From the NCBI GenBank assembly GCA_963726265.1, contig CAVSBQ010000002.1:861795-925794 (forward strand): DNA of 64,000 bases, read 5' to 3'. Below are positions 12,264 through 50,589 of this stretch, one piece after another. Numbering within the stretch: the stretch's first letter is position 1; the number at the start of each line of letters is the position of its first letter. The position numbers and the translations under genes are program-made. This stretch comes from Candidatus Aenigmatarchaeota archaeon (GTDB taxonomy: Archaea; Aenigmatarchaeota; Aenigmatarchaeia; QMZP01; QMZT01). The notes below the pieces were generated by a model, which saw only the letters and a list, made by a program, of their open reading frames with translations, made no database searches and was not told where the DNA came from.

Positions 12264-12307
12264 GCGAATAGGCAAGCTTATTTTAAATTACAAACGAAGA
12301 ATTCTAC

Positions 12308-12718: not shown

Positions 12719-12891
12719 CAAGAGATTTACATGTTCTCTTCTTCTTCCTCTGATGGATCTTCGTCATCAAAGGGTTTTTCAGGAAAATCGTCGTCATCAA
12801 AGCGCAAACAAATCACCCAAATTTATTTAATATTGAACGGCATGGGTATTTAAGATTTTTGATTGTCTAGTCTCGCTTGTCGCAGAGCCGC

Positions 12892-13287: not shown

Positions 13288-13439
13288 CCCTCACCTTTTT
13301 AATGTAGTTATTATTGTAATGTTATTATAATAAATAATTTTGCCAGGCTGGCCTTCCTGCGTTTCTCCGGCATCGTCCCGCGAGAACAGGCATAATGTAA
13401 CCACTTGGCAAAAGTGAATATATACACTGAAATATCGAA

Positions 13440-13509
13440 ATCTTTATAAAGGAGTAAACTATAAGATATATTAACGTTTGGACTTATATAATCACTTGAA
13501 GGGAGTAAA
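13440..13509 (+). promoter_or_regulatory. AT-rich promoter region of tfb with TATA-like boxes (ctttataaagg at 13442; acttatataatc at 13482)
   Basis: Sharp AT-rich tract in a high-GC genome immediately upstream of the TFB start codon; spacing is compatible with a short-leader or leaderless archaeal promoter. Confidence 0.4.
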
Positions 13510-14472: not shown

Positions 14473-14484
14473 ACTCGTTCGCCC

Positions 14485-15558
14485 CTAATTATTCTTGCGT
14501 CTTAAAATTCCGGCAATTTCCCTTACAGTGGCGTCTGTTTTTACTGCCGTAAGGCACATGTGCGTCCTGGACGCCTCGAAGCCCTTTGACCTCAGGCTTT
14601 CTATGATATCATCGATTTTCGGAGGGCTCGCCTTCAGCGACTGCGCCACCATGTGCACGTCGTAATAGAAAGGATGGTCTATCTCCTCCGCAGAAAGTTT
14701 TATCTCTTTTTCGCCCTGGAATTCGAACGACTCCAGCAAACGTTTGCAGAACTCGCGATCCTGGATTTCCCCGGTCCATAGCGGGCCGATGTGCTTCATT
14801 TCGCTTCTGCAGTTATCGCAGCGGCTCTCTACGCCGATTTTTTTGTTGTGGCATTTCGGGCAGTACGAGACCATGCTTATCTTTGCCATTCCCTTTTCAG
14901 CGCCATACGAAACCCTTCCGATAACGCGGAAGTAATGGTTCGCGTGCGAATACAGGGGCTCGAAGCTCATGTCGTGCGTCGCGAGGTTCTTGATAATAGA
15001 GGTTATCAGGACGCGGATGCCCAGTTCTTTCGGGAAGTCGGTTTCCGTCACGAACACGCCGTAGCGCCTGAAGCACGCGGAAGCGAACTTCCCTGACAGC
15101 GCGCCCGAGTCCGTCGCGGTCACGCCGAGCAGCGAGGCCTTCCTGAGTGAATAAGAGACGCTTCTCAGGAACTTGATGGGCGAGCCGAACGGGTCGATGT
15201 CAACGAAATTGAACCTTCTTTTTTCGAGGAAAAGCTCGTTCGCGTCCTTGCTGGAGATTTCGTAAGATGACTTCTTTATTTTGTTAAGCGCGAGATTCTT
15301 GCGGAGAAGCTTTATGGCGGCAGGGCTGACATCGTTGAACATAACGCTGGCGACGCCCGCTTCCTTTAACAGGCGAATTCCGCGCACGCCTGTCGCCGCG
15401 AGCGGGTCGAGAACGTCTTTCGCCCCGGCGAGCCTGACGATTGCGACGGTCACGTTCCTCTGGTGCTCCATCGCCGGGTTGTAGAACGTCTCCGACGCCT
15501 TCGTCAGCGATTCGTCGGGAACGTAAAGTTTCGCTTTTCCTTCTACGGTCTTTTTCAT
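14485..15558 (-). CDS. trm1: tRNA (guanine26-N2)-dimethyltransferase Trm1
   Basis: FYNPAMEHQRN...LDPLAATGVRGIR...VDIDPFGSP...C-terminal CPKCHNK...CDNC zinc module. Start placed at internal MKKTVEG. Confidence 0.8.
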   Translation of the reverse strand: MKKTVEGKAKLYVPDESLTKASETFYNPAMEHQRNVTVAIVRLAGAKDVLDPLAATGVRGIRLLKEAGVASVMFNDVSPAAIKLLRKNLALNKIKKSSYEISSKDANELFLEKRRFNFVDIDPFGSPIKFLRSVSYSLRKASLLGVTATDSGALSGKFASACFRRYGVFVTETDFPKELGIRVLITSIIKNLATHDMSFEPLYSHANHYFRVIGRVSYGAEKGMAKISMVSYCPKCHNKKIGVESRCDNCRSEMKHIGPLWTGEIQDREFCKRLLESFEFQGEKEIKLSAEEIDHPFYYDVHMVAQSLKASPPKIDDIIESLRSKGFEASRTHMCLTAVKTDATVREIAGILRRKNN

Positions 15559-15601
15559 AGGAAATTTTTGAAAGCAGACAATAAAAACATAAAAAGAAAG
15601 A

Positions 15602-15675
15602 TGGGGCAAGTGGGATTTGAACCCACGACCTATCGGTCTTCAGCCGAGCGCTCTCCCGGGCTGAGCTATTGCCCC
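15602..15675 (-). tRNA. tRNA-Phe (anticodon GAA)
   Basis: Reverse complement GGGGCAATAGCTCAGCCCGGGAGAGCGCTCGGCTGAAGACCGATAGGTCGTGGGTTCAAATCCCACTTGCCCCA folds as a cloverleaf (7-bp acceptor, GTTCAAATC T-loop), with anticodon loop CTGAAGA. Confidence 0.8.
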
Positions 15676-15712
15676 CCGTATAACCATAATATTCTGGCAG
15701 GCAATTTAAAAA

Positions 15713-15991
15713 TCAATACGTGACCACTTTTATGCTGCGGTCTTCCTGCTGTATCTTGTATATCTTGCCCGCCCTGAACCTGCCTATGACGCTTTCCAGC
15801 GCCTTTTCCATTTCCTGGTAATGCTCGGGGCACAAATAGAGCGAAATTATGTCCCTTTTCTTGGCCGTGTGCATGTCTATCTGGTATATCAGCATCTCCT
15901 TCGACGGCTTCCTGCCGCATTCCCTGAAGTTGCAGCTCGTCCTGAGAAGGCGGATGTTGCAGTGCCTGTCGACAAGCTCGAAGAGCTCCAT
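15713..15991 (-). CDS. hypothetical small protein (92 aa) between the two tRNA genes
   Basis: ORF only; Cys/His-containing (CNIRLLRTSCNFRECG...CPEHYQ). No family recognised. Confidence 0.3.
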   Translation of the reverse strand: MELFELVDRHCNIRLLRTSCNFRECGRKPSKEMLIYQIDMHTAKKRDIISLYLCPEHYQEMEKALESVIGRFRAGKIYKIQQEDRSIKVVTY

Positions 15992-16122
15992 GTTAAGTTA
16001 TTGGGCTAAAGCTTGAAAAACGTTTCAGAAGCAGCAGGCTGACGCAGGCTTGCCTGCGCTTAAATCGATTGAAACAGGCAGGGCCTGTTTCTTTCGCTCG
16101 TCACGTCCCGGGCAGGGAACGA

Positions 16123-16194
16123 CGTCCCGAGCAGGGTTCGAACCTGCGACCTATCGGTTAACAGCCGATCGCTCTACCACTGAGCTATCGGGAC
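16123..16194 (-). tRNA. tRNA-Asn (anticodon GTT)
   Basis: Reverse complement GTCCCGATAGCTCAGTGGTAGAGCGATCGGCTGTTAACCGATAGGTCGCAGGTTCGAACCCTGCTCGGGACG. Cloverleaf with anticodon loop CTGTTAA. Confidence 0.8.
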
Positions 16195-16257
16195 AATACT
16201 AAAGTTTAACCAGCGCCAGAAATAAAAAGGTTTTTCATTCCCTTTGCAAAATCCTTT

Positions 16258-17367
16258 CTAAGGCAAGAAGTCCTGCTGCCTGATTTTTTCGGGCAGGTAT
16301 GTCTCGGAGATGAACCTTATCCCCTTCGCCGACAGCGCTTCTAACTCGAGCTTGTAGCCGAAATGTAGCATGTTCTTGAGCTCCTTCTGCCATTCCTTGG
16401 GCTTGAACCAGACGTATTGCATGAGCTCTTTCGTGCGCTTGATGTCGAGGTTGTTCATCTTTATCGTGACGTTGTGAGGTATGCCGAATTTTTCGACGTC
16501 GAGCGTCGTGAGCCCGATGTATTTCGCGTCAGGCGTGCCCAGCCGGTCTGACAGGAAGGAAAGATTGATGGAGCCCTGCTTGATGACCGAGTAAATATAA
16601 TAGCCGTAGCAGTCGGCGTCGCACAGCACGTATACGGGCAGCTTGTGTTCAATATGGAGCCGGTTGACGAGGCGGCGCGTCCCGCGCGCGGGCTGGCCCT
16701 TGCCGGTTATGATGAGGCAGTTGTGCTTCTTCCAGAACTTGTCTTCATTGAGGCGCTGCCAGACGGCGTCTTTCTCTATGACCAGGACGTAGTCTGCCTT
16801 GACGTCCTCGAACCGGATGATGTCGCTCTCGACGTTGCTCGGGATCGCCCAGCCGGAGCTGCCCATCTTGGCGCAGTTTATCCTGTCGCCCATGTCGTTT
16901 AGGACGACGTTGCCCGCCATGTAGCCCTTGCGATCGGCCTTGAGGCTGAGGTTTTCCCTGAGCGTGTTGAGCATCGCCTCAAGGTCCTCGATGACGGGGT
17001 CGCTCTCGTCCTGCTCCTCGAACGTGTTTTCCCTCGTCCCTGGAATTGTGCGCTTGAGCGCGTAGTAAAGGTCACGAATCGACGTGGTAACGCCCTGCCT
17101 GCGTATGTTCTTGCATTCCGCGGCGACCATCAGCGTCTGCATGAACTTCTTGGTGTGCGCGGCGTTCAGGTAGAAGCGCTCGCTCTTCTTTTCGCCCAGC
17201 TGGATAAGGCCGTTCTTCTCGTCAAAATATATGTTCGAGAGTGACCTGACCGGCAGCTCTAGCTTTGGGTTTTCCTGCCTTTCTATCTGGCGCAGGACGT
17301 TCTTTCCCAGTTCCTGCAGCTTTTGCGCTTCCTTCCTTTCCTTCTCCGCCTTCGCTTTCTCCATCAT
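16258..17367 (-). CDS. top6A: DNA topoisomerase VI subunit A (Spo11 homologue)
   Basis: Winged-helix plus Toprim: …SNIYFDEK…[10 protein letters not shown]… …[13 protein letters not shown]…[15 protein letters not shown]. Confidence 0.9.
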
Positions 17368-18949
17368 CTTCCTCCGTTATTTTATGCCTTTTCGAATTTA
17401 TGAGCTCGAAAATCTCCTGCTTTATTTTCTCCTTGTTCTCTTCAGTGAGCTCTGAAATAGCATTCGCAGTCTCGTCCGCATAGCGCTCGAAGGTCTGCAT
17501 CCTCTGCTGGTGGTATTCGCTTTTGCGCTTACCGGAAAGGTAAAGCCCCAGCTTACGCGAGCATTCCTGCAGCGCTAGTTTTATTTCCTTGATTATGACC
17601 GGATAACTCGCGATTGCCTCCTTCGATTCGGAGGTGAACGGCACCCACACTGAAAACAGGTGGACGAATATCGCGACCGGCTCGGGGTTCTCGGCCGAGG
17701 TCTTCATGAAATTCGCGAGGCCGTATCTCCTCCATTCGATGTCAGAAATCGACTTCGTGATAGCGCAATCCCCTTGCTGATATAACAGCGGCACGCGGTT
17801 CGCGAACCTCATGACTTTCGGCTCCGTGATCGCGCCTGCGTAGGCGATGCCCACCTCGACTTGGAAGGGCCATCCCCTGTAGACCTCGGGAGGCCTGGTC
17901 ACGGCATCGACCCACTCCGGCCTGAATTCCTTTTCGAGGCTTTTCTTGATGACGTCCTCGCCGAGAGGCGACAGGCAGTCCGTCGGCGGCTTGAGCAGCT
18001 TCACGCCCTTTATGACCTCCACGATCCTGCGCGCCTCCTCGTCCGTGATTCTCCGCGGCTTCCTCGTCTCCTCTATGACCGCCCGCGTGCATATGTCCTT
18101 CGCCGTAACCCTTCCGACCTTGGTGAACTCGCTGGTCAGGAAGCTGGCGAAGGTCCGCGCCTTCGTGTCGCGAAGCATGCGGGTGAAAACGCCGAACTCG
18201 ACGCCGTGCAGGTGTGGCATTATCTCCTTCGGCTCGCGCGGCAGGTGGCCGACCGCGTTCTCGTACACGCTTTCCACGCCGTCCGGCGCCACGAAAGTTA
18301 TCTTCGCGTGCGGGTTCACTATCGCGGTCTGCCTTATGTATTCGGGTATCGACTGCCTGTAATCCCTGTAAATGCCCTCGGTCATGAACCTCAGCGCAAC
18401 GCCGGTCGCGAATCTCATTTTGGCCCCCTGCAGGCTGTCTTTTTCCGTGGTGGAGCTTTCAACTATGATGGGCTCGTTCTTGCGCACGTCTATCTTTATC
18501 TTGTACTGGTGCAGCTTTCCGTTGCCTGTCGAGCTGAATATTTCGAGCGGCTCCCCGGTAGTAAGCTGCGTGTAAAGCGTCGCAGCGGAGACGCCTATGC
18601 CTTGCTGGCCGCGGCTCTGGCGGAGCCTGTGGAACTTCGAGCCGTAGAGCAGCTTCCCGAAAATCCTGGGTATCTGCTTCTCGACGATGCCGGGCCCGTT
18701 GTCCTCGATTATTATCTCGTATTTCTCGGGGGCGAGCTCCTTCACGCTCACGAAAATTTCCGGCAGCATGCCCGCCTCTTCGGTCGCGTCGAGCGCGTTG
18801 TCGACGCCTTCCTTGACTATCATGAGAAGCGCTTTCGCCTTGTTGTCGTAGCCGAGGAGATGGCGGTTCTTCTCGAAGAACTCGGATACCGAAATCTCGC
18901 GCTGCTCCTTGGCCATGTCTTCAGCTTTCTTCATCCTTCCCTTCCTCAA
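17222..18949 (-). CDS. top6B: DNA topoisomerase VI subunit B (GHKL ATPase)
   Basis: …[11 protein letters not shown]…IEDNGPGI…[10 protein letters not shown]… Bergerat-fold motifs, transducer domain. The C-terminal Lys/Gly-rich tail overlaps top6A by 146 nt. Confidence 0.9.
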
Positions 18950-19898: not shown

Positions 19899-21437
19899 TC
19901 AGTAAAGATAGCCGAGCTCGAGGATGATTTTCACGTTCTCCTGCATCTCGTTGCCGAGCGATTTGTAGATGTAGGAAGACGCTGGTTTCTTTATTTCAGC
20001 CTTCGCGAGCCTGTGCTCGCTGCCCGCGGCCCACGCCACGAGCGCCTTTACCAGCGTGGCGTAGTCGTCGCTGAGCTGGGTCGCATTGGAAAGCCACGCG
20101 GTCCTGCCGCTGCCTATGCCTTCTATGTTGTAGTTTATCACGCACGCAGGCAGGCCGCTCGCCTTCTGCACGAGGAGCATCTTGTTCTGGTTGCCGCTGA
20201 TCTGGGTGACGTTCTCGTTCACGAGGAAGCTGGCGAATTCCCTCCTTTCAGGCTCCGTCACCCTTACGTTGTCCACGTAGGCTTTCCCGCACCTGTTGGA
20301 AAGGCTCATGTTCGACTGGTCGAGCCCTGCCGCCTGCGCCGACGCGGCCATTTTGCCGTCGACGTAAAGCTTCATGCTGCCGTATTCCGCGGTTATTTTC
20401 ACGTGTTTCCATGTCAGTGACGCGACGAGGACGGATGTGTTCGAACCCGTTGAGCCAAGCGGCGGGGAGCGGTAGAATGAAGTGTATCCCGTCGTCCTGT
20501 TGGTCGAGAGCGAAGCTAAATAAGCATAGCCGCCACCCTTGGCGAAGCCCACGAGCAGGTAAGCGCCGTTCTCAAGGTAAACGTCGAAGTCTATTTCCCC
20601 GCTTGCGAAGGAGTCATAGAACCTGGTGAAAATGAAGGAGTTGTCTTCCCCTGCGTTGCAGCCTTCGCCCGCCAGCTCGAGCGCGGGCGGCGTGCTGCCG
20701 ACTGCGGCGATGTCCGCGTCTCCGGCCCACTGGCCCGTGTTGCCGAAGTTGTCGTAGAACAGTGGTACGTGGATGAAGCGCTCGTAGATGACGTTGGCCT
20801 CCCTGCCGTCCTGCATGGCCGCGTCCGGGAATATTATGCCCGTGCTGTCCGAGACAGTTAAACCTGAATCCAGGCCGAACACCGTTTCCTGCACACTATC
20901 AATCACGTTCAGGTCCGCTATCTCGACCACGCCTTTGTTGTGGCCCAGGAAATTCCTGAGCGCTGCCTGCGTCGCAGCAGGGGTCAGGTCCTCGTAGCCG
21001 CGGACAAGAGTTACGTCGAAATCCAGCGAGAACAGTTCGCTGGCGCTCCCGACTTTCACCACTTCAAAAGTGGTTTTCCTGCCGTTTATGGCAAACCATC
21101 CGGGCGAAAGCATGCTGTTCACCTCTGCGAACTCACTGTCGCTGCAGAGGCAGCCAAGCTTTATCTCCGGCTTGATGGCGTTCTGGAGCGTCACCGCGTA
21201 TATCACGTTCTCCGGCAGCGTGCGGTTAAGCTCCGCGTCGACCTCGGTTTTGTTGAACCAGTCAATCCCCTTGGCGTCAAGCGCGCGGAGCGCGTCGTCC
21301 GCCATCATGCCGAGCTTGGTCTTCTGCCAGTCCGTCGCCGGCCCAGGGATGGAGGCGAACTGGCTGAAAACGAAGAACAGGAGGACGATGATGAGCAGTA
21401 TCTCGACGATGTGCATGAAGCCCTTCATCTTTGCCAT
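19899..21437 (-). CDS. large secreted protein with archaeal type-IV-pilin-like (class III) signal peptide
   Basis: Start placed at internal MAKMKG|FMHIVEILLIIVLLFFVFS: basic residues, Gly, then a long hydrophobic helix, the FlaK/PibD-type prepilin pattern. About 510 aa extracellular portion with no recognisable enzymatic motif. Confidence 0.5.
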   Translation of the reverse strand: MAKMKGFMHIVEILLIIVLLFFVFSQFASIPGPATDWQKTKLGMMADDALRALDAKGIDWFNKTEVDAELNRTLPENVIYAVTLQNAIKPEIKLGCLCSDSEFAEVNSMLSPGWFAINGRKTTFEVVKVGSASELFSLDFDVTLVRGYEDLTPAATQAALRNFLGHNKGVVEIADLNVIDSVQETVFGLDSGLTVSDSTGIIFPDAAMQDGREANVIYERFIHVPLFYDNFGNTGQWAGDADIAAVGSTPPALELAGEGCNAGEDNSFIFTRFYDSFASGEIDFDVYLENGAYLLVGFAKGGGYAYLASLSTNRTTGYTSFYRSPPLGSTGSNTSVLVASLTWKHVKITAEYGSMKLYVDGKMAASAQAAGLDQSNMSLSNRCGKAYVDNVRVTEPERREFASFLVNENVTQISGNQNKMLLVQKASGLPACVINYNIEGIGSGRTAWLSNATQLSDDYATLVKALVAWAAGSEHRLAKAEIKKPASSYIYKSLGNEMQENVKIILELGYLY

Positions 21438-21525
21438 AAGCCCAACCCGAGCCGCATAGCCCAACGGAGCGCAAGCCAAAACAGCGGAACTCAATTTATT
21501 ATTAATGCGGTTTACATTATAAAAC

Positions 21526-22920
21526 ATGGACCTGAAATCCGTTTTCTCCTATCTGGGCTTCGTCCTCGTCGCGCTCGCGGTCTCGATGCTCATTCCCTTT
21601 TTCGCGAGCTTCGTATTCGACGACGGCGTCTACATCCCGTTCCTGCTCGGCGCCTTCATCTCTTTCGTCATCGGCATAATCCTGATAAAGAGGTTCAGGC
21701 GCGAAACTCTCACGCTCGGCGCGGCCATGGTGCTCGCTGGGCTTTCGTTCCTCGTGGTTTCGCTCCTGGGCACCGTCGTCTACCTCGACCACATGCAGCC
21801 GCTGGACGCGCTCTTCGAATCGGTTTCCGGCTTCACGACAACCGGCTTCACCACCGTCGCTCCGGAAACGCTGCCATACTCCATCCTGCTCTGGCGCTCG
21901 CTGACCCAGTGGCTCGGCGGGCTGGGAACGCTGGTCATGATAATCCTCCTCTTGTCCTCGCCGGGGCTGTCCGTCTACTACATGTATAAGGCGGAGGCGA
22001 AGACGTTCAAACTGGAAGCCAACGTCCTGCGCAGCGCGAAAAAGATATTCACGATCTACGGCGTTTACACGCTCGCGGGCATAGTGCTCTTCATGCTCGC
22101 CGGCATGCCAGCCTTCGACTCGCTCAACCATTCGCTCACCGCGGTATCGTCGGGCGGCTTCTCGGTGAAGAACGGCTCGCTCGGCTACTACTCGAGCTTC
22201 ATGATAGAAATCGTCGCCATCATCCTCATGATAATCGGCGCGACCTCGATTTTCATCCACACGAAGCTCTTCGAGGGAAAGCTGAAGATATATCTCAGGA
22301 ACAGCGAGGCGCAGCTGTTCTGGCTTTTCACGGTGATTTTTTCAGTGCTGCTGACGCTCTCATTCCTCCCGCTTGCGGACCCGGTCAGGAGCGGCGTGTT
22401 CCACACCTTCTCCGCGCTCACGTCGAACGCCTTCAGCCTCGGCGTCGCCAGCTACCCCGAGCTTTCGAAATTCATCCTGGTCATGGCCATGCTCATAGGC
22501 GGCTGCGCCGGCTCGCTCGCGGGCGGCCTGCGTCTGGTGAGGGTCGGCATCCTCGGCAAGGCGGTCACGTGGATAAGCAAGAAGATATTCTATCCGACCT
22601 CGGCGGTCGTGCCGTTCAAGTTCGGCAGGAAGACCATAGACGACCAGGAGTTGACCATCATCTCGCTGTTCTCTTTCACCTATCTCATCATACTCGTCAT
22701 CTCGTCGATGCTGTTCAGCTTCATGGGCTATGCGCCGGCGGATGCGTTCTTCGTTTCCGCGTCGGCTGAAGGGAACGTCGGCCTCACTACAATCAGCGTC
22801 GCGGCGATGAACCCTGCTGGAAAGGTTTTGCTGATGATAGACATGCTGCTCGGCCGCCTGGAAATCCTGCCGTTCTTCGTCCTGTTCTTCGTGATTTATT
22901 CCAGACTAAAGTTCAGATGA
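21526..22920 (+). CDS. trkH: TrkH/KtrB-family potassium uptake transporter
   Basis: Repeated M1-P-M2 units with selectivity-filter-like GFTTTGFTT and LGGLGT segments. 464 aa polytopic. Confidence 0.85.
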   Translation: MDLKSVFSYLGFVLVALAVSMLIPFFASFVFDDGVYIPFLLGAFISFVIGIILIKRFRRETLTLGAAMVLAGLSFLVVSLLGTVVYLDHMQPLDALFESVSGFTTTGFTTVAPETLPYSILLWRSLTQWLGGLGTLVMIILLLSSPGLSVYYMYKAEAKTFKLEANVLRSAKKIFTIYGVYTLAGIVLFMLAGMPAFDSLNHSLTAVSSGGFSVKNGSLGYYSSFMIEIVAIILMIIGATSIFIHTKLFEGKLKIYLRNSEAQLFWLFTVIFSVLLTLSFLPLADPVRSGVFHTFSALTSNAFSLGVASYPELSKFILVMAMLIGGCAGSLAGGLRLVRVGILGKAVTWISKKIFYPTSAVVPFKFGRKTIDDQELTIISLFSFTYLIILVISSMLFSFMGYAPADAFFVSASAEGNVGLTTISVAAMNPAGKVLLMIDMLLGRLEILPFFVLFFVIYSRLKFR

Positions 22921-23011: not shown

Positions 23012-23599
23012 ATGAAACTCGAGCTAAAAATAGTGGATTTGCTGGCCAGAGACATAGAAAAGAAATTTACAATTAATGAGATAGCAAAAGCTCTGGAAGA
23101 GTACTATTCCTTTGTCCACAGAACTGTCAATAAGCTAAACAAAGACGATGTAATAATCAAAGAAAAAGCTGGCAAATCCTATCTTTGCTCATTGAATGTG
23201 ACGAATGAGAAAACAATGGCATTAATGCAGTTAAGCGAAATTGAAAAAAGGGGTGAATTTTTAAGCCAGAATAAAGAGTTGAAGCTAATTTTGGAGGATT
23301 TTGTCAAAGCCGCAGAAACGCAGGTTGATGCAATTTCTATCGTTCTGTTCGGGTCTTATGCCAAAGGCACAGCAACAAAGGAAAGCGATATTGATATCTT
23401 GCTGATAAGCAGAGGCAAGGCAGGAATTGACAAAATAACAAAAGGTATGTATGCAAAATACGGAAAGGAGATTAGCACAATAATAATGACCCCCGATGAC
23501 TTCAAAAAACAGAAAGATAAGGCTGTAATCAAAGAGATTATAAACAACCATTACATACTCTACGGGGTAGAGAAACTTGTAAACATGGTGTTCAAATGA
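23012..23599 (+). CDS. nucleotidyltransferase-domain protein with N-terminal winged helix (MntA-like antitoxin of MNT-HEPN pair)
   Basis: VLFGSYAKGTATKESDIDILL minimal-nucleotidyltransferase motif (GS…D.D). AT-rich. 4-nt ATGA overlap with the downstream HEPN gene. Confidence 0.7.
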   Translation: MKLELKIVDLLARDIEKKFTINEIAKALEEYYSFVHRTVNKLNKDDVIIKEKAGKSYLCSLNVTNEKTMALMQLSEIEKRGEFLSQNKELKLILEDFVKAAETQVDAISIVLFGSYAKGTATKESDIDILLISRGKAGIDKITKGMYAKYGKEISTIIMTPDDFKKQKDKAVIKEIINNHYILYGVEKLVNMVFK

Positions 23600-24162
23600 G
23601 AGCGAAAGACATAATCACAAGGGCGATGAAGCGGGCCAAAGAAGAAAGAGGCCTTAGAGTGTCAAGGCCAAACGATTATCTAAGCGATGGCCATATCAAG
23701 AAAGCAGACCACAATCTGATTGTTATGACGGATTTGAACAGGCTCGGGCATGAGGATTGGGTCGTAATTTCTGCCTATTATGCAATGTACCAGTCTGCTA
23801 CGGCATTGCTTGCAAAAATAGGGCTGGAAAGCAAGGATCACGCCACAACCGCGGCCGTTCTGGAATACCTTTTCGGCGAGCAGATAAGCAAAGAACTGAT
23901 AGGAAAGTTCAACGAGTTGAAAGAAAGGATTGAAACAATAACCATGGATGAAAAATACATCGACTATTTGTGGAAAACCAAGAGAGCAAGGGAAACTGCG
24001 CAATACGGCATTTCCATAAGCCACAAAGAAACTGATACCATTATGAGAAACGCAAGGGAGTTTGTGAGCAAGATAAAGCTGATGTTAAGTGAACTGAACG
24101 AAAAGCTGGTTGCGATTATCGGCAAGGAGATAGAGGAATTGGAAGAGATATCAAGAAAATGA
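23596..24162 (+). CDS. HEPN-domain protein (HepT-like partner)
   Basis: All-alpha 188-aa protein translationally coupled to the nucleotidyltransferase gene. Canonical Rx4-6H not obvious; RARETAQYGISISH is the closest, so nuclease activity is uncertain. Confidence 0.6.
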   Translation: MRAKDIITRAMKRAKEERGLRVSRPNDYLSDGHIKKADHNLIVMTDLNRLGHEDWVVISAYYAMYQSATALLAKIGLESKDHATTAAVLEYLFGEQISKELIGKFNELKERIETITMDEKYIDYLWKTKRARETAQYGISISHKETDTIMRNAREFVSKIKLMLSELNEKLVAIIGKEIEELEEISRK

Positions 24163-25026: not shown

Positions 25027-25626
25027 ATGGCGCAGGCTTTGCTCAAAATCTACAATTCGCTGCTGAACGACTACGGCCGCCAGGCATGGTGGCCGACGCA
25101 TCGCAGTTTCCAGCCGAAAGAATGGGAGATATGCGTCGGCGCGATTCTCACCCAGAACACGAACTGGAGGAACGTCGAGAAGGCGCTCGACGTCCTTTTA
25201 GAAAATAAAATCATTTCCCCGGAAAAAACCCTTGGGATAAAAACCGAAGAACTCGAAAAACACATCAGGTCTAGCGGCTTCTACAGGCAGAAGGCCATTC
25301 GCCTTCGAACGCTCGCGCAGTTCATCCTCTCATTCGGCAGCTTTTCTGAATTCAACAAAAAAGTTAAGAGGGAAGAGCTGCTGAAGGTGAAAGGCATCGG
25401 CCCCGAGACCTGCGATTCAATCCTGCTATACGCCTGCAACAGGCCGTTCTTCGTCATCGACGCCTACACCAGGCGCTTCGTGCGCTCGCTCGGCATGAAG
25501 ACAAAGCAGACAAAGGCGGGCGGGGATTACGAAAGCCTGCGCAGCCATTTCGAGGCGCGCCTCCCGCGCGACGTCGCGCTCTACAAGGAGTTCCATGCCC
25601 TGATCGTGGAATGGGGGAAGCGGTAA
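25027..25626 (+). CDS. HhH-GPD superfamily DNA glycosylase-like protein (endonuclease III-related, no Fe-S motif)
   Basis: …ICVGAILTQNTNW…LLKVKGIGPETCDSILLYA…FVIDAY…, helix-hairpin-helix Gly/Pro-rich loop with catalytic Asp. Confidence 0.6.
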   Translation: MAQALLKIYNSLLNDYGRQAWWPTHRSFQPKEWEICVGAILTQNTNWRNVEKALDVLLENKIISPEKTLGIKTEELEKHIRSSGFYRQKAIRLRTLAQFILSFGSFSEFNKKVKREELLKVKGIGPETCDSILLYACNRPFFVIDAYTRRFVRSLGMKTKQTKAGGDYESLRSHFEARLPRDVALYKEFHALIVEWGKR

Positions 25627-25684
25627 AATTATAATACCATTAGAAGGTAGTAAAAGCTTTAAAACCAGAAAAACAATTAAAAAC

Positions 25685-27133
25685 ATGAAGGTTTACGATG
25701 CTCTGAAGAAAAGGTATAAAAGCAGAGTTTTGCCGGTGCTGGGAGGTTTAGGCCTGCTGGCAATCGCGGCAGTCCCAGCTTCTGCAGGAGATGGCCCGGA
25801 TAACTTATACGGGGAAAGATTTTACGATGACCTTGTTAACACGAAGCCGACAACTGAGCATGCAAGTAAACCGGCGGAATATGCTGCCGAAATAAAGGAT
25901 GCCAGCAAACACAGAAAAACGCCAAAAAGGACCCTTTCCATTAACTTGACGCAAAACCCCCTAAAAGATTCCGAATCGCTTTCAGACTGCTGGTACGCAT
26001 CCAACCAGATTTTAGGAGAGGGCAATGATTATCTGGGCGAAAAACTGGGACTCGACAAAAACCTGCTGGGCAGGCTTGGCCTTGCGGCAGGAGCCCTGTG
26101 GGGGTCGCATGTTTCTTCTTATTATGCCCATGAAACAGCCCACGATATAGATTTGGAGAGGCGTGGCATAAACCCGGGAATCGATATAGACTTATCGGAC
26201 TGGGGAGGTTTTTTTGCACCCCGCTACAGGCAAAAACCCATTGGTTTCGAAAATTACATAAAATTGGATGACGACGCTATTTTCAGGATAACGGTCAACG
26301 GGCTTAACCAGGACGAGCTTAATGCGAAAAGGGGATGGGAACAGTCCATGCTGAAGGGCGAGCTTAGTTTTTGTGACAGCCTTTCCCACCTTCGGTCAAA
26401 ACTTGAAGATGTGGTTTACATACTGGGCGTAGGCCTTGCAGAACAAAGGTTCGATGCGATATTCAGCGAACTGCCTTCCCGGTATATGTTCGCCGATTAC
26501 CATCAAAAAGGCATCAAGACCGACCCGGACATCTACACAGGTCTTCTCCAGTCCAGAGGCATAAATCTCACCAAGAAAGGTTATCTGATACAGGCCTTGG
26601 CGGCTGATATTTTGTCTTACCCGACATGGGAAAGCCTTGGGTCTGTTTTCAGGTATCTGACTAAAGGGGAAAGGACCGGCAAGCCGTTCACGTTAAAACT
26701 GGCTGACGGCCTTGAAATAACGCCTCCTCTTTTCAGTCTATACTTGACGCCGCTGGGAAGCGTCTGCGAAGCCAGTTCGATGTTCAACCCGGGCGGTAAA
26801 AATCCCTTTAAATTTTCTCTCGGGACTGATCTCGATTTTATCGGGAAAGGAAAGGTCGATCTCCTGAGAATAGGGGGCCAGCTGTACGGCGTCGATTTTC
26901 CGCTCGGGGTTAAGGTCAGCCCGTTCGCTCACGTGAACCTGCAAAAGTCATCTTTATCGCCTGACGGATTTTCAGCCGGGTTTGAGGCTTCTGTCACTCT
27001 AGCCAAAAAAATAAGGCTGCGCGGAAAGGCGGAGATGTGGAGTAGAGACCTGATAAAAAGCATGGTAGTTGAAGGCAAAAGGAGCGGCTTCAAGCTAGCG
27101 CTAGGTTTAGAAGCGGGCATCTGGAGCGATTGA
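25685..27133 (+). CDS. secreted protein with HExxH (HETAH) motif and amphipathic beta-strand-like C-terminus
   Basis: Signal peptide VLPVLGGLGLLAIAAVPASA; HETAHDID at about residue 160. C-terminal alternating pattern …GFKLALGLEAGIWSD. No confident family assignment. Confidence 0.45.
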   Translation: MKVYDALKKRYKSRVLPVLGGLGLLAIAAVPASAGDGPDNLYGERFYDDLVNTKPTTEHASKPAEYAAEIKDASKHRKTPKRTLSINLTQNPLKDSESLSDCWYASNQILGEGNDYLGEKLGLDKNLLGRLGLAAGALWGSHVSSYYAHETAHDIDLERRGINPGIDIDLSDWGGFFAPRYRQKPIGFENYIKLDDDAIFRITVNGLNQDELNAKRGWEQSMLKGELSFCDSLSHLRSKLEDVVYILGVGLAEQRFDAIFSELPSRYMFADYHQKGIKTDPDIYTGLLQSRGINLTKKGYLIQALAADILSYPTWESLGSVFRYLTKGERTGKPFTLKLADGLEITPPLFSLYLTPLGSVCEASSMFNPGGKNPFKFSLGTDLDFIGKGKVDLLRIGGQLYGVDFPLGVKVSPFAHVNLQKSSLSPDGFSAGFEASVTLAKKIRLRGKAEMWSRDLIKSMVVEGKRSGFKLALGLEAGIWSD

Positions 27134-27215
27134 AAGCGCATGTGCCGGGCAATATAGTTATTTTTACATCGTTGAAATTAACAATCTAATAAATAATCGA
27201 GACTAATAGTAAATC

Positions 27216-30200
27216 ATGGGGAAAAAGCATTCGCCTTTCCTGTTTTTGACCGTCTCGGTCTCGATTTGCGTATTATTCCTTTTATCAAACGCTTCCCCAG
27301 TTTGGGCAGATGCAGGAACCCCCTGTACTATAAATACAAATTGCTGGGATTCAGCAACGGATAACGATGGGGGTATCGCTCCAAAAACACAAGGGGTTTG
27401 CAAAGAATATCATGACACTTGTGTAGATAAAAAATGCAAGGGAGAATTTACTACTGTGAATTTTCCTGATAGCTGTCAAAGCAGTGTCAACTTGTATGAA
27501 TATTATCCAAGTGGTATCTATTGCAGCTACGTAGGGTCACTTTGTAATGATTTTGATAATACACCTGCTTGCGGAGGAAGTGGCAATCCATGTCCGGGAT
27601 GTTTTTATTACGACTGGTCCTGCACAGGAAGCGGCACAGTTAGCAACCCCGGTTACTGCGACGATACCGCAATTAATCCCGACACCCCGCCATCAACTTA
27701 CTGCACATCTTGCGGTAAACCCTGGGGCATCGGGGGCGAGGGTGCGGGTGCTTCTGCATGCTGCGGAGACGACAGCAGCGAGAACGTATTAACATGCACC
27801 GCAACCACTCTTATTGCATGGAAGACATCGAGCTGCGATGGCAGGACCGCCTGCTGCAACCCGAGCACCGACTGCAACACCGACGACAATTGCTACGCTA
27901 CAGGATCCGACTACCAGGTCTCAAGCGGGGTTGACCAGTGGGCGTATTGCGGCAGCGGCCATACGTGGTATGATTGCGACAATTACCCGACTAGTTGTTC
28001 TGTATGCGGCTATGCCAGTACAACATGCGGCGAGGCACTCAGTGAGTGCAGCAAAGGGCAGACGGAGTGCTGCGGGGATGATGAAAATGAATATAAAAAT
28101 ACATGCAACACTGTCTCCACTGTTGACTGGACCTGCAGCGTAACAGCATGCTGTAATCCCAGCACGGACTGCGTCCAGCCTGATTACACCTGCAGCAATA
28201 CTCAGGAAGCCCATAAAACCCAGACAAGCGGCAATGACATGTGGGCGTATTGCGGCAGTGATATAAAATGGCATGACTGCGATACCTATTACTCTGATTG
28301 CGGGGCAAGCGTATGCGGAAGCGCCAGCGGGGTAAAATGCGGAGAGACTTTCGATGAGTGTGTCAAGGGACAGACGGAGTGCTGCGGCGACGATTCAACT
28401 GAGGATTATGCATACTGTCAAAAGGATTCTGCTATCACCTGGTCATGCAGCAGCTCCGACACTGCCTGCTGTAACAACCCTTCCAACTGCGTCGACCCCA
28501 CTGATCCTACATGCCATACAAGCAGCAGGGGGCATGATGTTGACGCTTCGTCCTCAATAGACAACTACGCCTACTGCGACGGCTCTACGCAGCCCGGGAC
28601 ATGGAAGGACTGCGATAGTTATCCAACGTCTGTGGGCTGCAACTGCGCCCAGCAGGCGGCAATAAGATGCGGAGAATCAGGTTTCGGGGAATGTAATTTG
28701 GGCGAGATGGAATGCTGCGGCGACGACTCGGGAGAGAATTACAGGTATTGCGAGGCCGCGGCTGGCTTCCCTGCTGTTGCCGGCGACTGCGCCTCCAGCG
28801 ACAGCGCATGCTGCAACTCGGCGACTGACTGCGTCACGACAGACGGCAGCACATGCGTGACCAGCGGTAGCACTTCCGTCGACGGCGACGGCAACGGGGA
28901 CAACGACTACTGCAATGCAGGGACGTGGTATGACTGCAGCGACGCCACCAACAACCAGTGCCCGGTGGGATACATGTGCAGCGTTTCTGATGACTGCGTC
29001 CTTGATACGACGCCGCCAACGGTCTCGGTCAGCGGAGCCCCGGCGAGCTGGCAGAAGACCGACGCGACCGCAAGCGTCGTATGCAGCGATTCCTACAGCG
29101 GCTGCGACGTCACGAGCTACAAACTACTCACATACGCTTCAAACCCAGGCTCATGCCCCACCACCTACAGCAGCTACACCCTGACCAGCCCGCAGACCGT
29201 CTCCAGCCACGTCTGGGTATGCGCGGCCGCTAAGGATAACGCGGGCAATGACGGGTTTTCAAGCCCGACGGAATTCAAGGTAGACAAGACGCTGCCAGTC
29301 ACAAGCATAACCTGCAACGGGGCGGCCTGCGCATCTTCATGGTATACGGCGAACGTCGCCATCGTGCTTTCATGCACTGACACCGGAGGCAGCGGATGCG
29401 CATCGACTTACTATTGCGTGGACCAGAGCGACGCCTGCACACCCTCGACGGCGTATTCATCTTCATTTGCCGTCTCCACAGAGGGGACGAATTACGTGAG
29501 GTATTATTCGACGGACGCCGCGACGAATGCAGAGGCGGTCAAATCGCAGACGGTCCGCCTAGACAAGTCAGCTCCGACCGTATCGGTCAGCGGAGCCCCA
29601 TCGAATTGGCAGAACACGGACGCCAGCGCAGCGGTCTCATGCTCAGACCCTTACAGCGGCTGCGACGCAGCGACGTACAGGCTGAGAAGCTCTTCATCAA
29701 ACCCCGGCGCGTGCTCGCAGACATACGCTGATTACACGCTCACCAGCCCCCAGACAATTTCAAGCCACCAGTGGCTCTGCGCCGCGGCGAAGGACGCCGC
29801 GAGCAATACAGGGTTTTCAACACCATCCGAATTCAGGATCGACAAGATAAACCCGGTCGCCTCCATAACCGACGAGTCGACAATCTGGATTAGTTCTGAC
29901 GTGATAACCCTCAGCTGCACGGACACCGGCGACTCTGCCTGCGTGACGACGAAATGGTATTATTTCGACGCGGACGGCGTCTGCGCGACGACGAAGGCGA
30001 GTTACACGCTTTCCACCACGGCCGCGACCATAACGGTTAACACGAACCACAACGACTGGCTGTGCCTGTGGGTCGAGGACAATGCAGGCAACCACGACAC
30101 CGACGTCTCCTCGCAGTTGCTCGTCGACGTCAACGCGCCATCCACGGTTATAGACGAGGACGGAGGCGACTACACCGGCTACAACGTGACGGCATTCAAC

Positions 30201-32707
30201 CTCACGTGCTCCGATACGGGCGGCTCGGGCTGCAACAAGACTTACTATAAAATTGTGAACGCCACCGACAGCTGCGGCACAACGGGCTTCACCGTCGTCA
30301 GCGCGGGTTTTGTCAAGGACAACGTGACCTGCCCCTTCGGCCAGACTTGCGACCTCAAGGTATGCTATTATTCTAATGACCGCGCGAACAATTTCGAGAC
30401 GCTGAAGCAGAGCAACTCCTTCCATCTGAAAACGAACGCCTGCCAGGGAAAGCAGTGCGGAGACGCATGTTTATACACCCAGGGCATATGCGACGGGCCT
30501 GACGGCAACTGTTACGCCAGCGGAGGATGCAGGCTCGCTTGCACAGCGCCTTCGCCGGGAACAGGGAACGAGAGGATATGGGTCACTTCCGCCTGCGGCA
30601 GGACGGGCTCCTACAAGTGCGCTGCGTCCTCAATCTGCAGCAACAGCCTCGTCTCATGCTCGGTCGGCGGCTCATCCGCGCCTGTCACTGGCGACTGGGT
30701 TTCATATTCCTATCCGACCGGCTCATACGGAACAGGAGGCTCGTTCAGCATAGCGCTTTCCGGCGTCAGCAAGAGCCCGCTGGGCTTCACCATACTTTCC
30801 GAATGCGCCGTGGTCAAATCCAACGGCAGCGTCGTCTATTTTGACAACTGGGGCACCAACGTGCTGTTCTCATATACCGTGAGGCCGGAAGACCCGGAGG
30901 GCATGTGGACCGTCGACTATTGCGGGCTGTGGTCGGACTTCGAGGGCAACGGCGGTTGGCTGCTGAAGCGCAACGACACGAACTACCAGTTCGCTGTGGA
31001 CAAGTCGCCGCCTTCCATCACCATAAACCGGCCGAAAACGAATGACGTTTATTCGGCTGACTTCACGGCGAACGCCACGGTCAGTGACACGTACTCGTCG
31101 ATTGACAAGGTATTCTATCGCTGGGAAAACACCACCAGCACCGGCGCCTGGGTAGGGATGGCGCTCAGCGGCGGCGAATACACCGCTAACTTCGACGTCG
31201 ATGTGATGGCCGACGGCGTGTATTCGGTAAGGGTCAGGGCGAACGATTCCGTCGGCAACTCCGGCAACGCCTCGGTAAGCAACGTCAGGATAGACAGGCA
31301 AGCTCCGGACATAACCATCTTCAGCCCTGCGTCAGGCTGGCACAACGCCAACTTCAGCGTGACGGCCAGGGTCACGGACAACGATGCGGTCGACCACGTC
31401 CGCTACCGCTGGGAAAACCTCACGAACTCCGGTCCCTGGAACAAAATGAGCCAGGACGCTTCCGGCAATTACACAGGCGATTTTTAACGTGCATTCCGTC
31501 TCGTCGGGCAACTACACGGTGAAGGTATGGGCCAACGACACCAAGGAACAACATCGCCGAAAAAACGGTGGACAGGGTGGGCATCGATTACGTCGCCCCC
31601 GCTTCAGCAATGACGAAGCCCGTTCCCAACACCTTCGTGATGAGCAGCGTCTTCAACATCTCATGGACAGGAAGCGACAGCCACAGCGGGGTGAAATGCT
31701 ATTACGTGACTTACAAGTATTGCGACAACGGCAACTACTACTGCCCCAATGAGCAATACAACGTCAGCTTCCCGGGAGGCAGGTGTACGACTCTGACGCA
31801 ATACGAGTTCAACCCGTCCAACGAGCTTTCGTGGGTGCAGGACTTCAACAACTACACGTTCTTCTTCAAGGCCGTCGCTTTGGACAACGCCGGCAACTAC
31901 GAATCCAAGGCGGTCTGGGAGACCAACATCACGATTTACATACCCAAGCTCGTGACCTTCGCGACCATAGAAAACACGACCAAGAACAGCATCAGGAACG
32001 GAGGCAAGGTCGCGACCAACAGGACCGTCGTCATATCTGTTAATGCTAAGGCCGACGTGACCGGCGTACTCAACATAACAGTCTACTATTCCAAGCACGC
32101 GGTCGGCGCGGCCCCGTCGGCTTGGACGCCCGTCTCCTGCCTCAACATCAGGGAGTGCAACGCCTCCATACAGATGAACCTGACCGCTGCGCAGGAAAGG
32201 ATGGAGGTCTCCTATTACATCCGGGCGGAAAACGCCAGCATGACCGAATTCCTGCCGCCCAACGCCCCGGCCGGCTACTTCTACTACACGGTCTACCTGC
32301 ATCCCATATGCAACTTCCTCGTGATGGAGGAAGTGAGGGCGATTCTCGGTTCCAACGAACTGGTAGGCATCGAGGTAAGGAACATCCAGGACAGCTACGA
32401 CAACGTCACCCTGTGGTTGATGCCCGCCTTCGCAAGGTTCGTGGAGACGGACTCGCAGAAGCTTACCGTGGCCCTGAACCCCTCGGAAGACAGGCTCATC
32501 TACGCGCGCCTCGTCCCGTCCGCGGACGACTTCATGCTCACCCTGGTCGGCAACGAGTCGCAGGCAGACCCCGAGCTTTACGACGAGGACTCAGTGCGCG
32601 TCATCCTCGGCTTCCCGCCCAACTTCTCCGAGCTCAGCGATTTCGCAGCAATAGTGCTGGTCCTGCTGGCGGGAATGCTATACTTCATATTCTTCAAGAA
32701 GGACTGA
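27216..32707 (+). CDS. giant cysteine-rich repeat surface protein (about 1,830 aa if read through two frame changes at about 31487 and about 31567) with signal peptide and C-terminal transmembrane anchor
   Basis: N-terminus MGKKHSPFLFLTVSVSICVLFLLSNASPVWA. At least four roughly 100-aa Cys-rich repeats containing ECCGDD…ACCN.S.DC…AYCGS…W.DCD. Then several roughly 95-aa beta-sandwich-like repeats starting DK(S/T/I)xP (two nearly identical at DNA level, about 29000-29300 vs 29560-29860). ORFs 31489-31752 and 31568-32707 continue the same repeat pattern in other frames. It ends …FAAIVLVLLAGMLYFIFFKKD. Confidence 0.6.
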
Positions 32708-38138: not shown

Positions 38139-39303
38139 ATGGATGTTGAAAAAGTTGAAAAAGCGGTGGACGCGCAGAAGGCCGGGATGATAAAGCTTCT
38201 TTCTGACCTGCTGGCAAGGAACACGGCCAACCCGCCCGGCAACGAATTCTTCGCGGCAGAGGTCGTCAAGGAATTCTTTGAAAGGGAAAAAATAGCATAC
38301 AGGATTTTCGAAAAGCAGAAGGGCCGTTCGAACATAATCGGTTATATAGGCAAAGGGAAGCCGCGCCTGATTATCGCCTGCCACATGGACACGGTCCCGG
38401 CTGGCGACGGATGGAAATCGAATCCTTTCCGTGCGCGAGTTGAGGGCGACAGGATTTATGGACGAGGCGCGGTCGACAACAAAGGCCCGCTGGCTGGCAT
38501 GCTCATCGCAGGCAAAATCCTCAAGAGGCTCGAGCCATCGCTTCGCTGCCAGGTCATGCTCGCCTGCGTCGCTGACGAGGAGATGGGCTCGGAATTCGGG
38601 ATGCGCTACCTGCTTGACAGCGGCCTCGACGCGGAATATGCGATTGTGCCGGACATAGAGCACGAGCTGAAGAAAATCGACGTCGCTGAGAAAGGGTCTG
38701 CTTGTTCCTGAAGGTCACTTCCCTTGGTCGCCAGGCGCACGGCTCGACTCCAGAAGCCGGGATAAACGCCGTCTGGAACATGCTCGAGTTCCTTGCGCTG
38801 CTCAAACGCTACAGGATGCGTTTTAAACGGCATCGTCTGCTTTCGCCGCCCACCATAAACCTCGGGCGTGATAAAAGGCGGGGAAGCGACGAACATGGTG
38901 CCTGCCGCATGCGAGGCGAAAATCGACATACGCTACCTGCCTTCTCAGAAATCTTCAGATATCATAAATGATGTAAAGAAGATGCTCGCGGTCGAGAAGG
39001 AAAAACAGGAAGGCGAGATTCAGGCTTGAAGTGATTGACCATCAGAAGCCCGTCGCCGTCGAAGGCGGCGCGCTGGTGAGGCTGATCAGAAAGCACGTAA
39101 AAGAGGTCACGGGAAACCATGCCGAGCTCATCGGCATCTCGGGGACGACGCTGGTCAAGCCGCTGGCCGAGAAAGGGATCGTCGCAGTGGGCTTCTCGCC
39201 CGGCAAAGGCCTTGCGCATACGGCGAACGAGTTCATCTCCATCGCCGAGCTCATGGCCTTCGCGAAGATACTGTGCCTGGTCTGCCTCGACCTTTCCGCT
39301 TAG
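38139..39303 (+). CDS. M20-family metallopeptidase (ArgE/DapE/CPG2-like), fragmented into three frames
   Basis: 38139-38711: …IIACHMDTVPAGDGW…GRGAVDNKGPLAG…ACVADEEMGSEFG. 38702-38971: …LKVTSLGRQAHGSTPEAGINAV. 39031-39303: …GISGTTLVK…VAVGFSPGKGLAHTANEFISI. Frame changes near 38700 and 38960-39030. Confidence 0.65.
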
Positions 39304-40105: not shown

Positions 40106-41430
40106 TTGCGTGATTGCATGCCGGAAAAATTCGAGCTGATGAATGCGAAGGGAGCGCGGGACTTTTTGCCAGAGGAAGCCATAGCCAGGCAGGAGATAAC
40201 CGGCATGCTGAAAGCGATATTCGAGAAATACGGCTATTCGCCGCTTGAAACGCCGGCGATTGAACGGAAGGACGTGCTGTCCGCGAAATTCGCAGGCGGC
40301 GCTGAAATAATGAAGGAGATGTTCAAGGTCGAGGACCAGGGCGGGCGTGAACTGGCGTTACGCTACGACCTGACGGTCCCGCTGGCCAAGGTCGTGGGCA
40401 TGAACCCCAACCTTACGAAGCCGTTCAAACGCTATCAAATACAGCCGGTATGGCGCGATGGCCCGATAAAGCTCGGCAGATATCGAGAGTTCCTCCAGTG
40501 CGACGCGGACGTCGTCGGGACGAAGTCCATGCTCGCCGACGCCGAGATACTGGCAATCGCTTCCGAATTCTTCACGAAGCTCGGGCTGAAATTCGTGATA
40601 AGGGTGAACTCGCGCAAGCTCATGAACGGCATGCTCGATTACGCAGGCATCCATGAGAACAAGATGGATGCGATTCTCGCGATAGACAAGCTCGAGAAGT
40701 TCGGCGCAGCCGCTGTGAAGAAAGAGATGGAAGAGAAGGGCTTCGCTGCGAAAGCGGTGGAAAGCCGTGCTGAAGATGCTGGAGCTGAAAGGCGGGAACG
40801 CCGAGCTGCTCGGAAAGGCCGGGAAGCTGATCAAGAGCGAGGAAGGGAAGGAAGGCGTAAAAGAGCTGCAGGGAGCTTCTGGACTATTGCGAGGCCATGG
40901 GCGTTGAGATAAAAATCGACGTCTCGCTGGCGCGCGGGCTGGAATATTACACCGGGCCGGTTTACGAGGTTTACCTGAAGGATTCGAAGGTCACGTCGTC
41001 CGTCGCCGGCGGCGGGCGCTACGACAAGATGATAGGCATGTTCATAGGACGCGGCGAATACCCGGCGACTGGGATTTCATTCGGCATAGAGCCGCTTTTC
41101 GAGGCGCTGAATGAGCAGAAGGAAGCGAGGCCGAAGACCGTTACGCAGGCCCTTGTGATTCCCATAGGCACGCTGGACGACTCGATAAAGCTCGCGAAGA
41201 AGCTGAGGGCGCTGGGAATAAAAACGGAAATCGACCTGATGGGACGCGGCATCTCGTCGAACCTGGACTACGCGAACTCGCTGGGCATTCCTTACGTCGT
41301 GTTCCTGGGGAAGAAAGAGCTCGCGGAAAAGAAGGTCAAGCTGCGCGACATGAAATCGGGCAAGGAAAAAATGGCGACTGCCGAAGAAGCAGCTTCTGTG
41401 ATAACGTCTGGGCCGTCTGGGCGCATCTAA
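40106..41430 (+). CDS. hisS: histidine--tRNA ligase, with two single-base frame changes (about 40772 and about 40872)
   Basis: N-part …KGARDFLPEE…LRYDLTVPLAKVV…KRYQIQPVWRDGP…REFLQCDADVVG. C-part (40897-41430) …ARGLEYYTGPVYE…GGGRYD… anticodon-binding domain. Both insertions sit in short homopolymers (agcc, caggg). Confidence 0.8.
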
Positions 41431-50586: not shown

Positions 50587-50589
50587 TAA

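Follow-up and report, generated by a model that had tools for sequence, protein, structure and literature searches.

In cultivation, DPANN archaea reportedly depend on direct physical contact with host cells (bioRxiv 10.1101/2023.02.24.529834), and surface-protein diversity is elevated in Nanoarchaeota (PMC6142677). The molecules behind such contacts are largely unknown outside Nanohaloarchaeota, where SPEARE proteins have been proposed (PMC6642349). These are very large, mostly extracytoplasmic proteins with a transmembrane (TM) segment near the C-terminus and variable adhesion domains, proposed to act in host interaction and defined by serine-protease, laminin-G and intracellular type III restriction-endonuclease domains (PMC6642349). 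Here, a giant cysteine-rich gene of a Candidatus Aenigmatarchaeota archaeon is described, located at 27216-32707 (+) in a 64,000-nucleotide stretch of contig CAVSBQ010000002.1 (assembly GCA_963726265.1, positions 861,795 to 925,794), which is called the window. Its 1,829-residue product is read, with reasonable rather than strong confidence, as an adhesin-like or cell-cell contact protein (for example with a host cell) with a previously undescribed head module, a reading consistent with the surface-protein diversity of Nanoarchaeota. The protein belongs to a familiar kind, the modular surface proteins of archaea; what is new is its head domain family and the uneven placement of its N-X-S/T glycosylation sequons.

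The protein resembles SPEARE proteins in size, DPANN origin, predicted extracytoplasmic bulk and C-terminal TM anchor. Unlike them, it ends in a three-residue tail (KKD), and serine-protease, laminin-G and restriction-endonuclease domains were undetected in Pfam and NCBIfam scans. Giant bacterial adhesins leave the cell through type I secretion, their N-terminus retaining them in the outer membrane. The Ca2+-stabilised adhesins MpIBP (4p99), SiiE (2yn5) and large adhesion protein (6xi3) share with the window protein a chain of immunoglobulin (Ig)-like extender domains carrying a distal binding region, and a model of its stalk matched these structures with Foldseek E-values of 1e-9 to 1e-11. 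The window protein differs from these adhesins in its Sec signal, in being anchored by a C-terminal TM segment and in its Cys-rich head, and the RTX/Ca_tandemer model NF033510 scored 16.5 bits (E 0.008), far below its cut-off of 50. Since both the defining SPEARE domains and RTX repeats are absent, it is not a member of either group. Archaeal surface-layer (S-layer) glycoproteins such as Haloferax volcanii csg (7ptp) share sequon-rich Ig-like domains, C-terminal anchoring and a motif just before the TM helix. Unlike these glycoproteins, the window protein matches no CTERM model, and its head is variable, Cys-rich and free of sequons.

The features of the gene are given below, with residues numbered on the protein restored to a single frame and with models from AlphaFold2 (AF2).

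27150-27215: putative promoter region, AT-rich, upstream of the gene
27216..27308 (+), residues 1-31: predicted Sec-type signal peptide, MGKKHSPFLFLTVSVSICVLFLLSNASPVWA, with a KK n-region, a hydrophobic core and VWA before DAG; the sole N-terminal hydrophobic window
27309..27710 (+), residues 32-165: unique N-terminal Cys-rich tip, 14 Cys
27711..29006 (+), residues 166-597: four tandem CCGDD modules, recognised by the family profile
27711-28025, residues 166-270: module M1, 13 Cys
28026-28337, residues 271-374: module M2, 14 Cys
28338-28667, residues 375-484: module M3, 14 Cys
28668-29006, residues 485-597: module M4, 15 Cys, with a DGDGNGDND Ca-binding-like loop at residues 556-564
29007..30431 (+), residues 598-1072: five Ig-like β-sandwich domains of two alternating types in the order A-B-A-B-B, B being an OmpL47-type barrel domain
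30432..30995 (+): start of the conserved stalk, an 11-Cys linker (residues 1073-1150) and a β-sandwich (residues 1151-1260), β-rich in the AF2 model
30996..31561 (+), residues 1261-1448: two Big_3_3/Big_7 Ig-like domains, the second carrying both frame changes
31481..31485 (+): frameshift 1, a T5 run (GATTTTTAACG); without one T the reading is GNYTGDFNVHSV, in step with the preceding repeat and with homologues P0166 and P0167
31543..31548 (+): frameshift 2, AAGGAA, a one-base excess (or two-base loss); mending restores WANDTK(G)NNIAEKTVDRVGIDYV
31562..32605 (+), residues 1449-1796: fibronectin type III (fn3)-like domain and two further β-sandwiches, rich in N-X-S/T sequons and all-β in the AF2 model
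32606..32707 (+), residues 1797-1829: juxtamembrane motif GFPPNFSEL, TM helix AAIVLVLLAGMLYFIFF, tail KKD and stop, based on hydropathy and a predicted C-terminal helix

The four tandem modules define an uncatalogued, DPANN-wide family of Cys-rich domains, as judged by profile searches. A word-indexed homology search with the four modules returned only seven proteins, and no curated family was found. A profile was built by aligning the four copies with these few matches, and the family was revealed by searching it exhaustively against 1.84 billion cluster representatives. It matched 503 protein clusters at E<=1e-3, 219 at E<=1e-10 and 43 at E<=1e-30. Every named member belongs to DPANN (Undinarchaeales, Aenigmatarchaeota, Woesearchaeota and Altiarchaeota). 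The matching proteins reach 6,834 residues; by local count, a single protein holds up to 16 module copies, and 612 copies occur in 161 fetched proteins. The family profile detects each of the four window modules with domain E-values of 1e-13 to 5e-23, which bears out the preliminary description of at least four modules of about 100 residues with about 14 Cys each. The unit is marked by the motifs CCGDD..E, ACC....DC and W.D, and across 425 full-length copies eight Cys show little or no variation, at profile positions 16, 17, 46, 47, 53, 59, 78 and (93). This eight-Cys module, with at least 500 protein clusters in at least four DPANN lineages, is a widely distributed candidate for cell contact, and its profile could annotate many giant proteins currently called 'hypothetical'.

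The module had been said to match no nameable domain, and this was upheld by every search made with it. Scans of the whole protein with Pfam-A and NCBIfam left the Cys-rich region (residues 32-597) unmatched at E<=1, isolated modules gave nothing in NCBIfam at E<=10, and a 99-sequence module profile gave no matches at E<=10 among PDB sequences. Known Cys-rich extracellular domains (EGF, laminin EGF, TSP_3, granulin, VSP and DUF4215/myxococcal Cys-rich repeat) gave no profile match on residues 32-597, and among 63 relatives (55 + 8) no Pfam family was able to cover the module. Foldseek with the module model returned nothing at E<=0.001, with best E-values of 3.8 in PDB and 3.3 in BFVD, and no description of the module was found in the literature searched on cysteine-rich proteins or adhesins of DPANN and Aenigmarchaeota. 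The unique tip ahead of the modules (residues 32-165) likewise has no Pfam or NCBIfam match and no homologue among about 300 fetched proteins. NCBIfam NF033662 (acid_disulf_rpt) was considered as the identity of the module and ruled out, as isolated modules remained unmatched by it at E<=10. This 'acidic double-disulfide repeat' does match in 2 of 55 module-bearing proteins (P0016-P0117, alignment A3), where a second type of Cys-rich repeat may co-occur.

Each module is probably held by at least four disulfides around the eight invariant Cys. Counts are even in 327 of the 425 copies, the pattern expected of disulfides; one optional Cys pair co-occurs (phi 0.75), and the remaining optional Cys replace one another rather than occurring together. 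The AF2 model of M4, built from 99 sequences, is a confident small β-hairpin domain (predicted local distance difference test, pLDDT, 80.3; predicted template modelling score 0.73), and this module is a defined target for structure determination and binding assays. An alternative use of the cysteines, in which the modules would bind metals or do redox chemistry (to scavenge metals, detoxify sulfide or metals, or transfer electrons) instead of acting as disulfide-stabilised binding domains, is very improbable. Such a role would suit a head that is 12-13% Cys with invariant CC doublets, the odd Cys counts of 98 copies (23%) and the acidic DxDxDG loops. However, there are no CxxCH haem motifs and no matches to Fe-S or metallothionein families in Pfam or NCBIfam, optional Cys come and go in pairs with counts mostly even, and disulfide-rich extracellular modules typically look like the confident β-hairpin model. 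The domains that accompany the module in a few of the 55 relatives (fn3, Big_13, Laminin_G_3, CarboxypepD_reg and DUF2341) are of adhesion or structural types, and no clearly catalytic Pfam domain recurs among these proteins. The DxDxDGxxD/E loop, which resembles a Ca-binding site, occurs in 18% of module copies, M4 included, at ten times the chance rate.

Disulfide-rich extracellular modules of eukaryotes include the hairpin stacks of granulin with their CC doublets, the Ca-binding thrombospondin type 3 repeats and the variant surface proteins of Giardia. The window protein recalls each of these by analogy only: CC doublets and stacked β-hairpins, the DxDxDGxxD loop of M4, and a variable Cys-rich ectodomain on a conserved TM segment with a short tail. 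Homology is unsupported, with no Pfam match at E<=1 and the best PDB E-value in Foldseek being that given above.

Three reading frames make up the gene, and the preliminary description had joined them tentatively into some 1,830 residues. The open reading frame (ORF) listing gives a 1,423-residue ORF at 27216-31487 (+), after which the next two frames hold short continuations, without overlap, up to 32707. Three-frame translation across 31381-31700 shows the protein reading on: frame +1 takes over at about 31486, and frame +2 carries the sequence from about 31546 as far as the stop codon at 32707, after which comes an oligo-T tract. Over the junctions the three frames read DASGNYTGDF, then NVHSVSSGNYTVKVWANDTK, then NNIAEKTVDRVGIDYVAP, in register with the preceding Ig-like repeat. 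Deleting one T of the T5 run and one base of AAGGAA yields a single 1,829-residue protein. Homologues with 45-56% identity cross both junctions in single ORFs; the three frames are thus one gene, and on this comparative evidence the unbroken frame is the ancestral state. P0166 and P0167 cover 98-99% of the C-terminal query at 52-53% identity; neither is interrupted at the first frameshift site, and at the second they read straight on as NDTNGNNVTKTV and NDTMGNVAEKTL. P0122 (1,504 residues) aligns to residues 909-1827 in a single high-scoring segment pair of 950 columns at 51% identity, spanning frameshift 2, and P0040 (1,924 residues) aligns to residues 958-1810 at 45%.

Searching for related loci with the whole protein returned three loci. 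One, L002, holds an intact 1,110-residue homologue (7599-10931) with its parts in the same order. The syntenic contig L005 carries two tandem intact paralogues of 1,176 and 1,520 codons (ORFs 520-4050 and 4226-8788), adjoined by Pelota and by the same 381-residue gene as in the window. Three separate genes, the outcome that would have undone the joined reading, are ruled out by the homologues that span the junctions (P0166, P0167, P0122 and the L002 and L005 ORFs). Furthermore, the independent Logan assembly L001 equals window 25575-30082 but for one substitution, located upstream of the gene, so the Cys-rich part is not an assembly artefact.

Both frame changes are most likely single-base assembly errors rather than biology, a possibility that the preliminary description had left open. 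Within 10 kb, two other genes carry the same kind of one-base insertion in a short homopolymer, which makes such errors probable here. The gene for histidyl-tRNA synthetase (HisRS; 40106-41430, +) is split into ORFs of 268 and 177 residues by one extra G in GGG (40871-40873), and dropping one G regains KELQ followed by ELLDYCEAMGV. The same gene is intact, with 427-438 residues, in the syntenic L005 and L006. An M20-family peptidase gene (38160-39294, +) is split across two frames at an A5 run (39001-39005) and is a single gene of 388-389 residues in L005 and L006. A HisRS pseudogene is unlikely, as this is an essential single-copy aminoacyl-tRNA synthetase. The public assembly thus carries homopolymer indels that split real genes.

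The giant gene could instead be a real pseudogene, or be truncated to 1,423 residues with its product secreted without an anchor or not made, but this is improbable. The public record does annotate two separate products, of 1,423 (P0014) and 376 residues (P0165), and the two shifts go in the same direction, 60 nt apart. L001 ends at 30082, before the frameshift sites, which leaves room for a real pseudogene; no protein of about 100% identity spanning the junctions was present in the protein collection searched; and all four known frameshifts fall within 31.4-41 kb, the other adjacent ORF pairs that were checked being intact genes. However, the same type of insertion is seen in the essential HisRS and in the M20 peptidase, and the 386 downstream codons are still open, are 52-56% identical to homologues and keep their sequon and TM features. 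Runs of two to five bases are also too short for slipped-strand phase variation, which was ruled out on this ground. Further frameshifts at other adjacent-frame ORF pairs of the window were also considered and dismissed, these pairs being complete, separate genes. At 59589-60701 (+), two DUF7793/SpoIIAA-like paralogues in tandem precede a HAMP-domain ORF; all three lie in different frames with overlaps of 11-13 nt, and every domain is whole.

With the frame mended, the locus is predicted, at somewhat better than even confidence, to encode a type-I membrane protein of 1,829 residues. Hydropathy shows, besides the signal segment, exactly one hydrophobic segment, at residues ~1803-1827, followed by KKD. 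The signal peptide and the single terminal helix of the preliminary description are both recovered. Directly before the TM helix, the motif G-x-P-[AP]-[NDS]-F-x-[EG]-[LM] is present in all seven close homologues (including P0166-P0169 and the L002 and L005 ORFs). A basic tail follows the helix in P0166-P0169 and the L005 ORFs, the L002 ORF being excepted. This order of motif, TM helix and basic tail is a layout like that of an archaeosortase-type sorting signal; no CTERM model (PGF-CTERM, PEF-CTERM or others) matched at E<=1 in the NCBIfam scan, and an archaeosortase gene was not searched for.

Between head and membrane lie about 11 Ig/fn3-like β-sandwiches (OmpL47-type, Big_3_3 and Big_7), six of them in residues 1151-1796. 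In the first set (residues 598-1072), NCBIfam NF047446, an OmpL47-type β-barrel domain, matches in two stretches, best at residues 710-781 (55.9 bits against a cut-off of 40, E 4.3e-15), and a Pfam CHB_HEX_C_1 match is weak. Only this repeat domain (residues ~710-781 and a second copy) is shared with OmpL47 of Leptospira, as the full-length equivalog NF047441 scored 38.8 bits, below its cut-off of 250. Further on, Big_3_3 (PF13750; 49.0 bits against 27, E 7e-13) and Big_7 (PF17957; 35.1 bits against 24.1, E 2e-8) both match residues 1321-1437. The proposed run of β-sandwich-like repeats therefore stands on domain matches above their cut-offs, although two details of it did not survive closer inspection. 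Two repeats had been called near-identical in DNA, whereas the most alike pair (residues 599-693 and 785-879) shares only 67% DNA and 64% protein identity. The start DK(S/T/I)xP ascribed to each repeat holds at four of seven boundaries, the others being DVNAP, DRQAP and DYVAP.

The stalk proper begins at nt 30432 (residue 1073), where collinear similarity to the syntenic L005 and L006 genes (54-59%) sets in. Phmmer matches residues 1073-1260 to P0040, P0122 and P0167, and residues 1449-1796 are 45-56% identical to P0122, P0166-P0169 and P0040. The AF2 model of residues 1073-1829 is all-β with a terminal helix, with a mean pLDDT of 68 and values of about 88-93 over the Big domains. Foldseek matches it to generic tandem Ig/fn3 arrays: macroglobulin domains, the adhesin extenders 4p99, 2yn5 and 6xi3, and the S-layer protein 7ptp.

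N-glycosylation sequons are distributed with a clear polarity along the protein. In residues 32-989 none is observed against 12.4±3.0 expected (0 of 5,000 shuffles reached the observed value), while residues 990-1802 are enriched, with 28 against 12.3 expected. The same polarity is seen in the L002 and L005 homologues. Across the family, sequons are depleted in the modules (366 against 544±21) and enriched in the rest of the same proteins (2,486 against 1,984±38). The membrane-proximal stalk is probably heavily N-glycosylated on this pattern. Heads, for their part, are not collinear among relatives and hold 4, 1, 1, 3 or 5 modules. For example, the stalks of the tandem paralogues of L005 are about 55% identical to that of the window gene, but each of their Cys-rich heads is wholly unlike that of the window gene and includes a single CCGDD module. 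Public gene calls fragment the second of these paralogues, a fully open 1,520-codon ORF. The homologue in L002, which is an archaeal metagenome-assembled genome (MAG), is ringed at 11133-18613 by several predicted surface proteins with N-terminal signals and C-terminal TM helices, most with a basic tail. Radical-SAM/SPASM-like and glycosyltransferase-like genes, as judged by eye, adjoin, and the region may be an envelope or glycosylation gene cluster.

These features can be placed in a single scheme. The protein would be exported through Sec and stay anchored by its single C-terminal helix with a three-residue cytoplasmic tail, projecting a long rod from the cell. Its membrane-proximal half (residues ~990-1800), an Ig/fn3-like chain that is conserved and syntenic among relatives, would serve as a glycosylated spacer. 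The distal half would consist of four disulfide-held modules and the unique Cys-rich tip, kept without N-glycosylation sites, with content and module number that vary by genome. The sequon-free, cross-linked head would then be the binding end and the glycosylated stalk its spacer. Exposure at the cell surface is supported by the topology signals and Ig-like spacer, together with the pattern of sequons and the DPANN setting, and the preliminary call of an S-layer, adhesin or cell-contact protein fits these same features. Sequon-free cross-linked heads on sequon-rich conserved stalks offer a testable design rule.

Besides the points that favour a pseudogene, several observations weigh against an anchored, disulfide-held adhesin. 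A C-terminal TM-like segment is found in just 11 of 152 family proteins, though many of these are fragments. The odd Cys counts fit poorly with full pairing, and extracellular disulfides would need explaining if the organism is anoxic. In addition, sequence by itself does not separate an adhesin from an S-layer subunit.

The last of these points leads to the main competing explanation, a structural envelope glycoprotein (S-layer or sheath) in which the conserved C-terminal stalk builds or anchors the wall and the head forms an outer canopy. Traits typical of archaeal S-layer glycoproteins are seen here: a TM anchor at the C-terminus, Ig-like domains rich in sequons, and a conserved syntenic site beside housekeeping genes. 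The L005 genome has two tandem paralogues. This explanation is nonetheless considered unlikely. Head content and module number vary strongly between close relatives (4, 1, 1, 3 and 5 modules), which is unusual for a lattice-forming subunit, and the protein is a rod-like chain of about 16 domains over 1,829 residues. The Haloferax S-layer protein 7ptp is among the Foldseek matches, but as a generic match to an Ig array, with a TM-score of 0.17.

The adhesin-like or contact reading remains preferred, and a more specific version of it can be put forward, though only tentatively and with considerable doubt. The CCGDD module may be a DPANN-specific, disulfide-knotted recognition domain with a fold unmatched by Foldseek in the PDB, and exchangeable glycan-free heads on conserved glycan-shielded stalks may be determinants of host range or partner choice in episymbiotic archaea. 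If true, archaea would have an equivalent of variable surface-protein systems, and a capacity for forming extracellular disulfides would be implied for these reduced genomes.

The surroundings of the gene are those of an archaeal chromosome. Neighbours include Pelota, topoisomerase VI A and B, A-type ATPase, Nre and SRP54, the last with its closest named relatives in Candidatus Aenigmatarchaeota MAGs (77-80% identity). By these marker genes the organism is an Aenigmatarchaeota-like DPANN archaeon; its small genome, of DPANN type, is judged from the 1,105,251-bp contig. A mobile-element origin is ruled out by the housekeeping neighbours and conserved synteny. Directly upstream, at 25685-27133 (+), lies a gene for a 482-residue protein with an N-terminal hydrophobic segment and a HETAH motif (HExxH, zinc-protease-like); it has no Pfam or NCBIfam match and shares a Logan contig with the start of the giant gene. 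At 23012-24162 (+), a nucleotidyltransferase gene (NTP_transf_2) next to a HEPN gene has the look of a typical MNT-HEPN toxin-antitoxin pair. A 542-residue protein encoded at 19899-21527 (-) has a weak Laminin_G_3 (concanavalin-like lectin) match and may be another surface protein. At 47950-56930 (-), a complete-looking A-type ATP synthase operon is present, in which Pfam detects subunits I, C, A and B, with further small ORFs between and after them.

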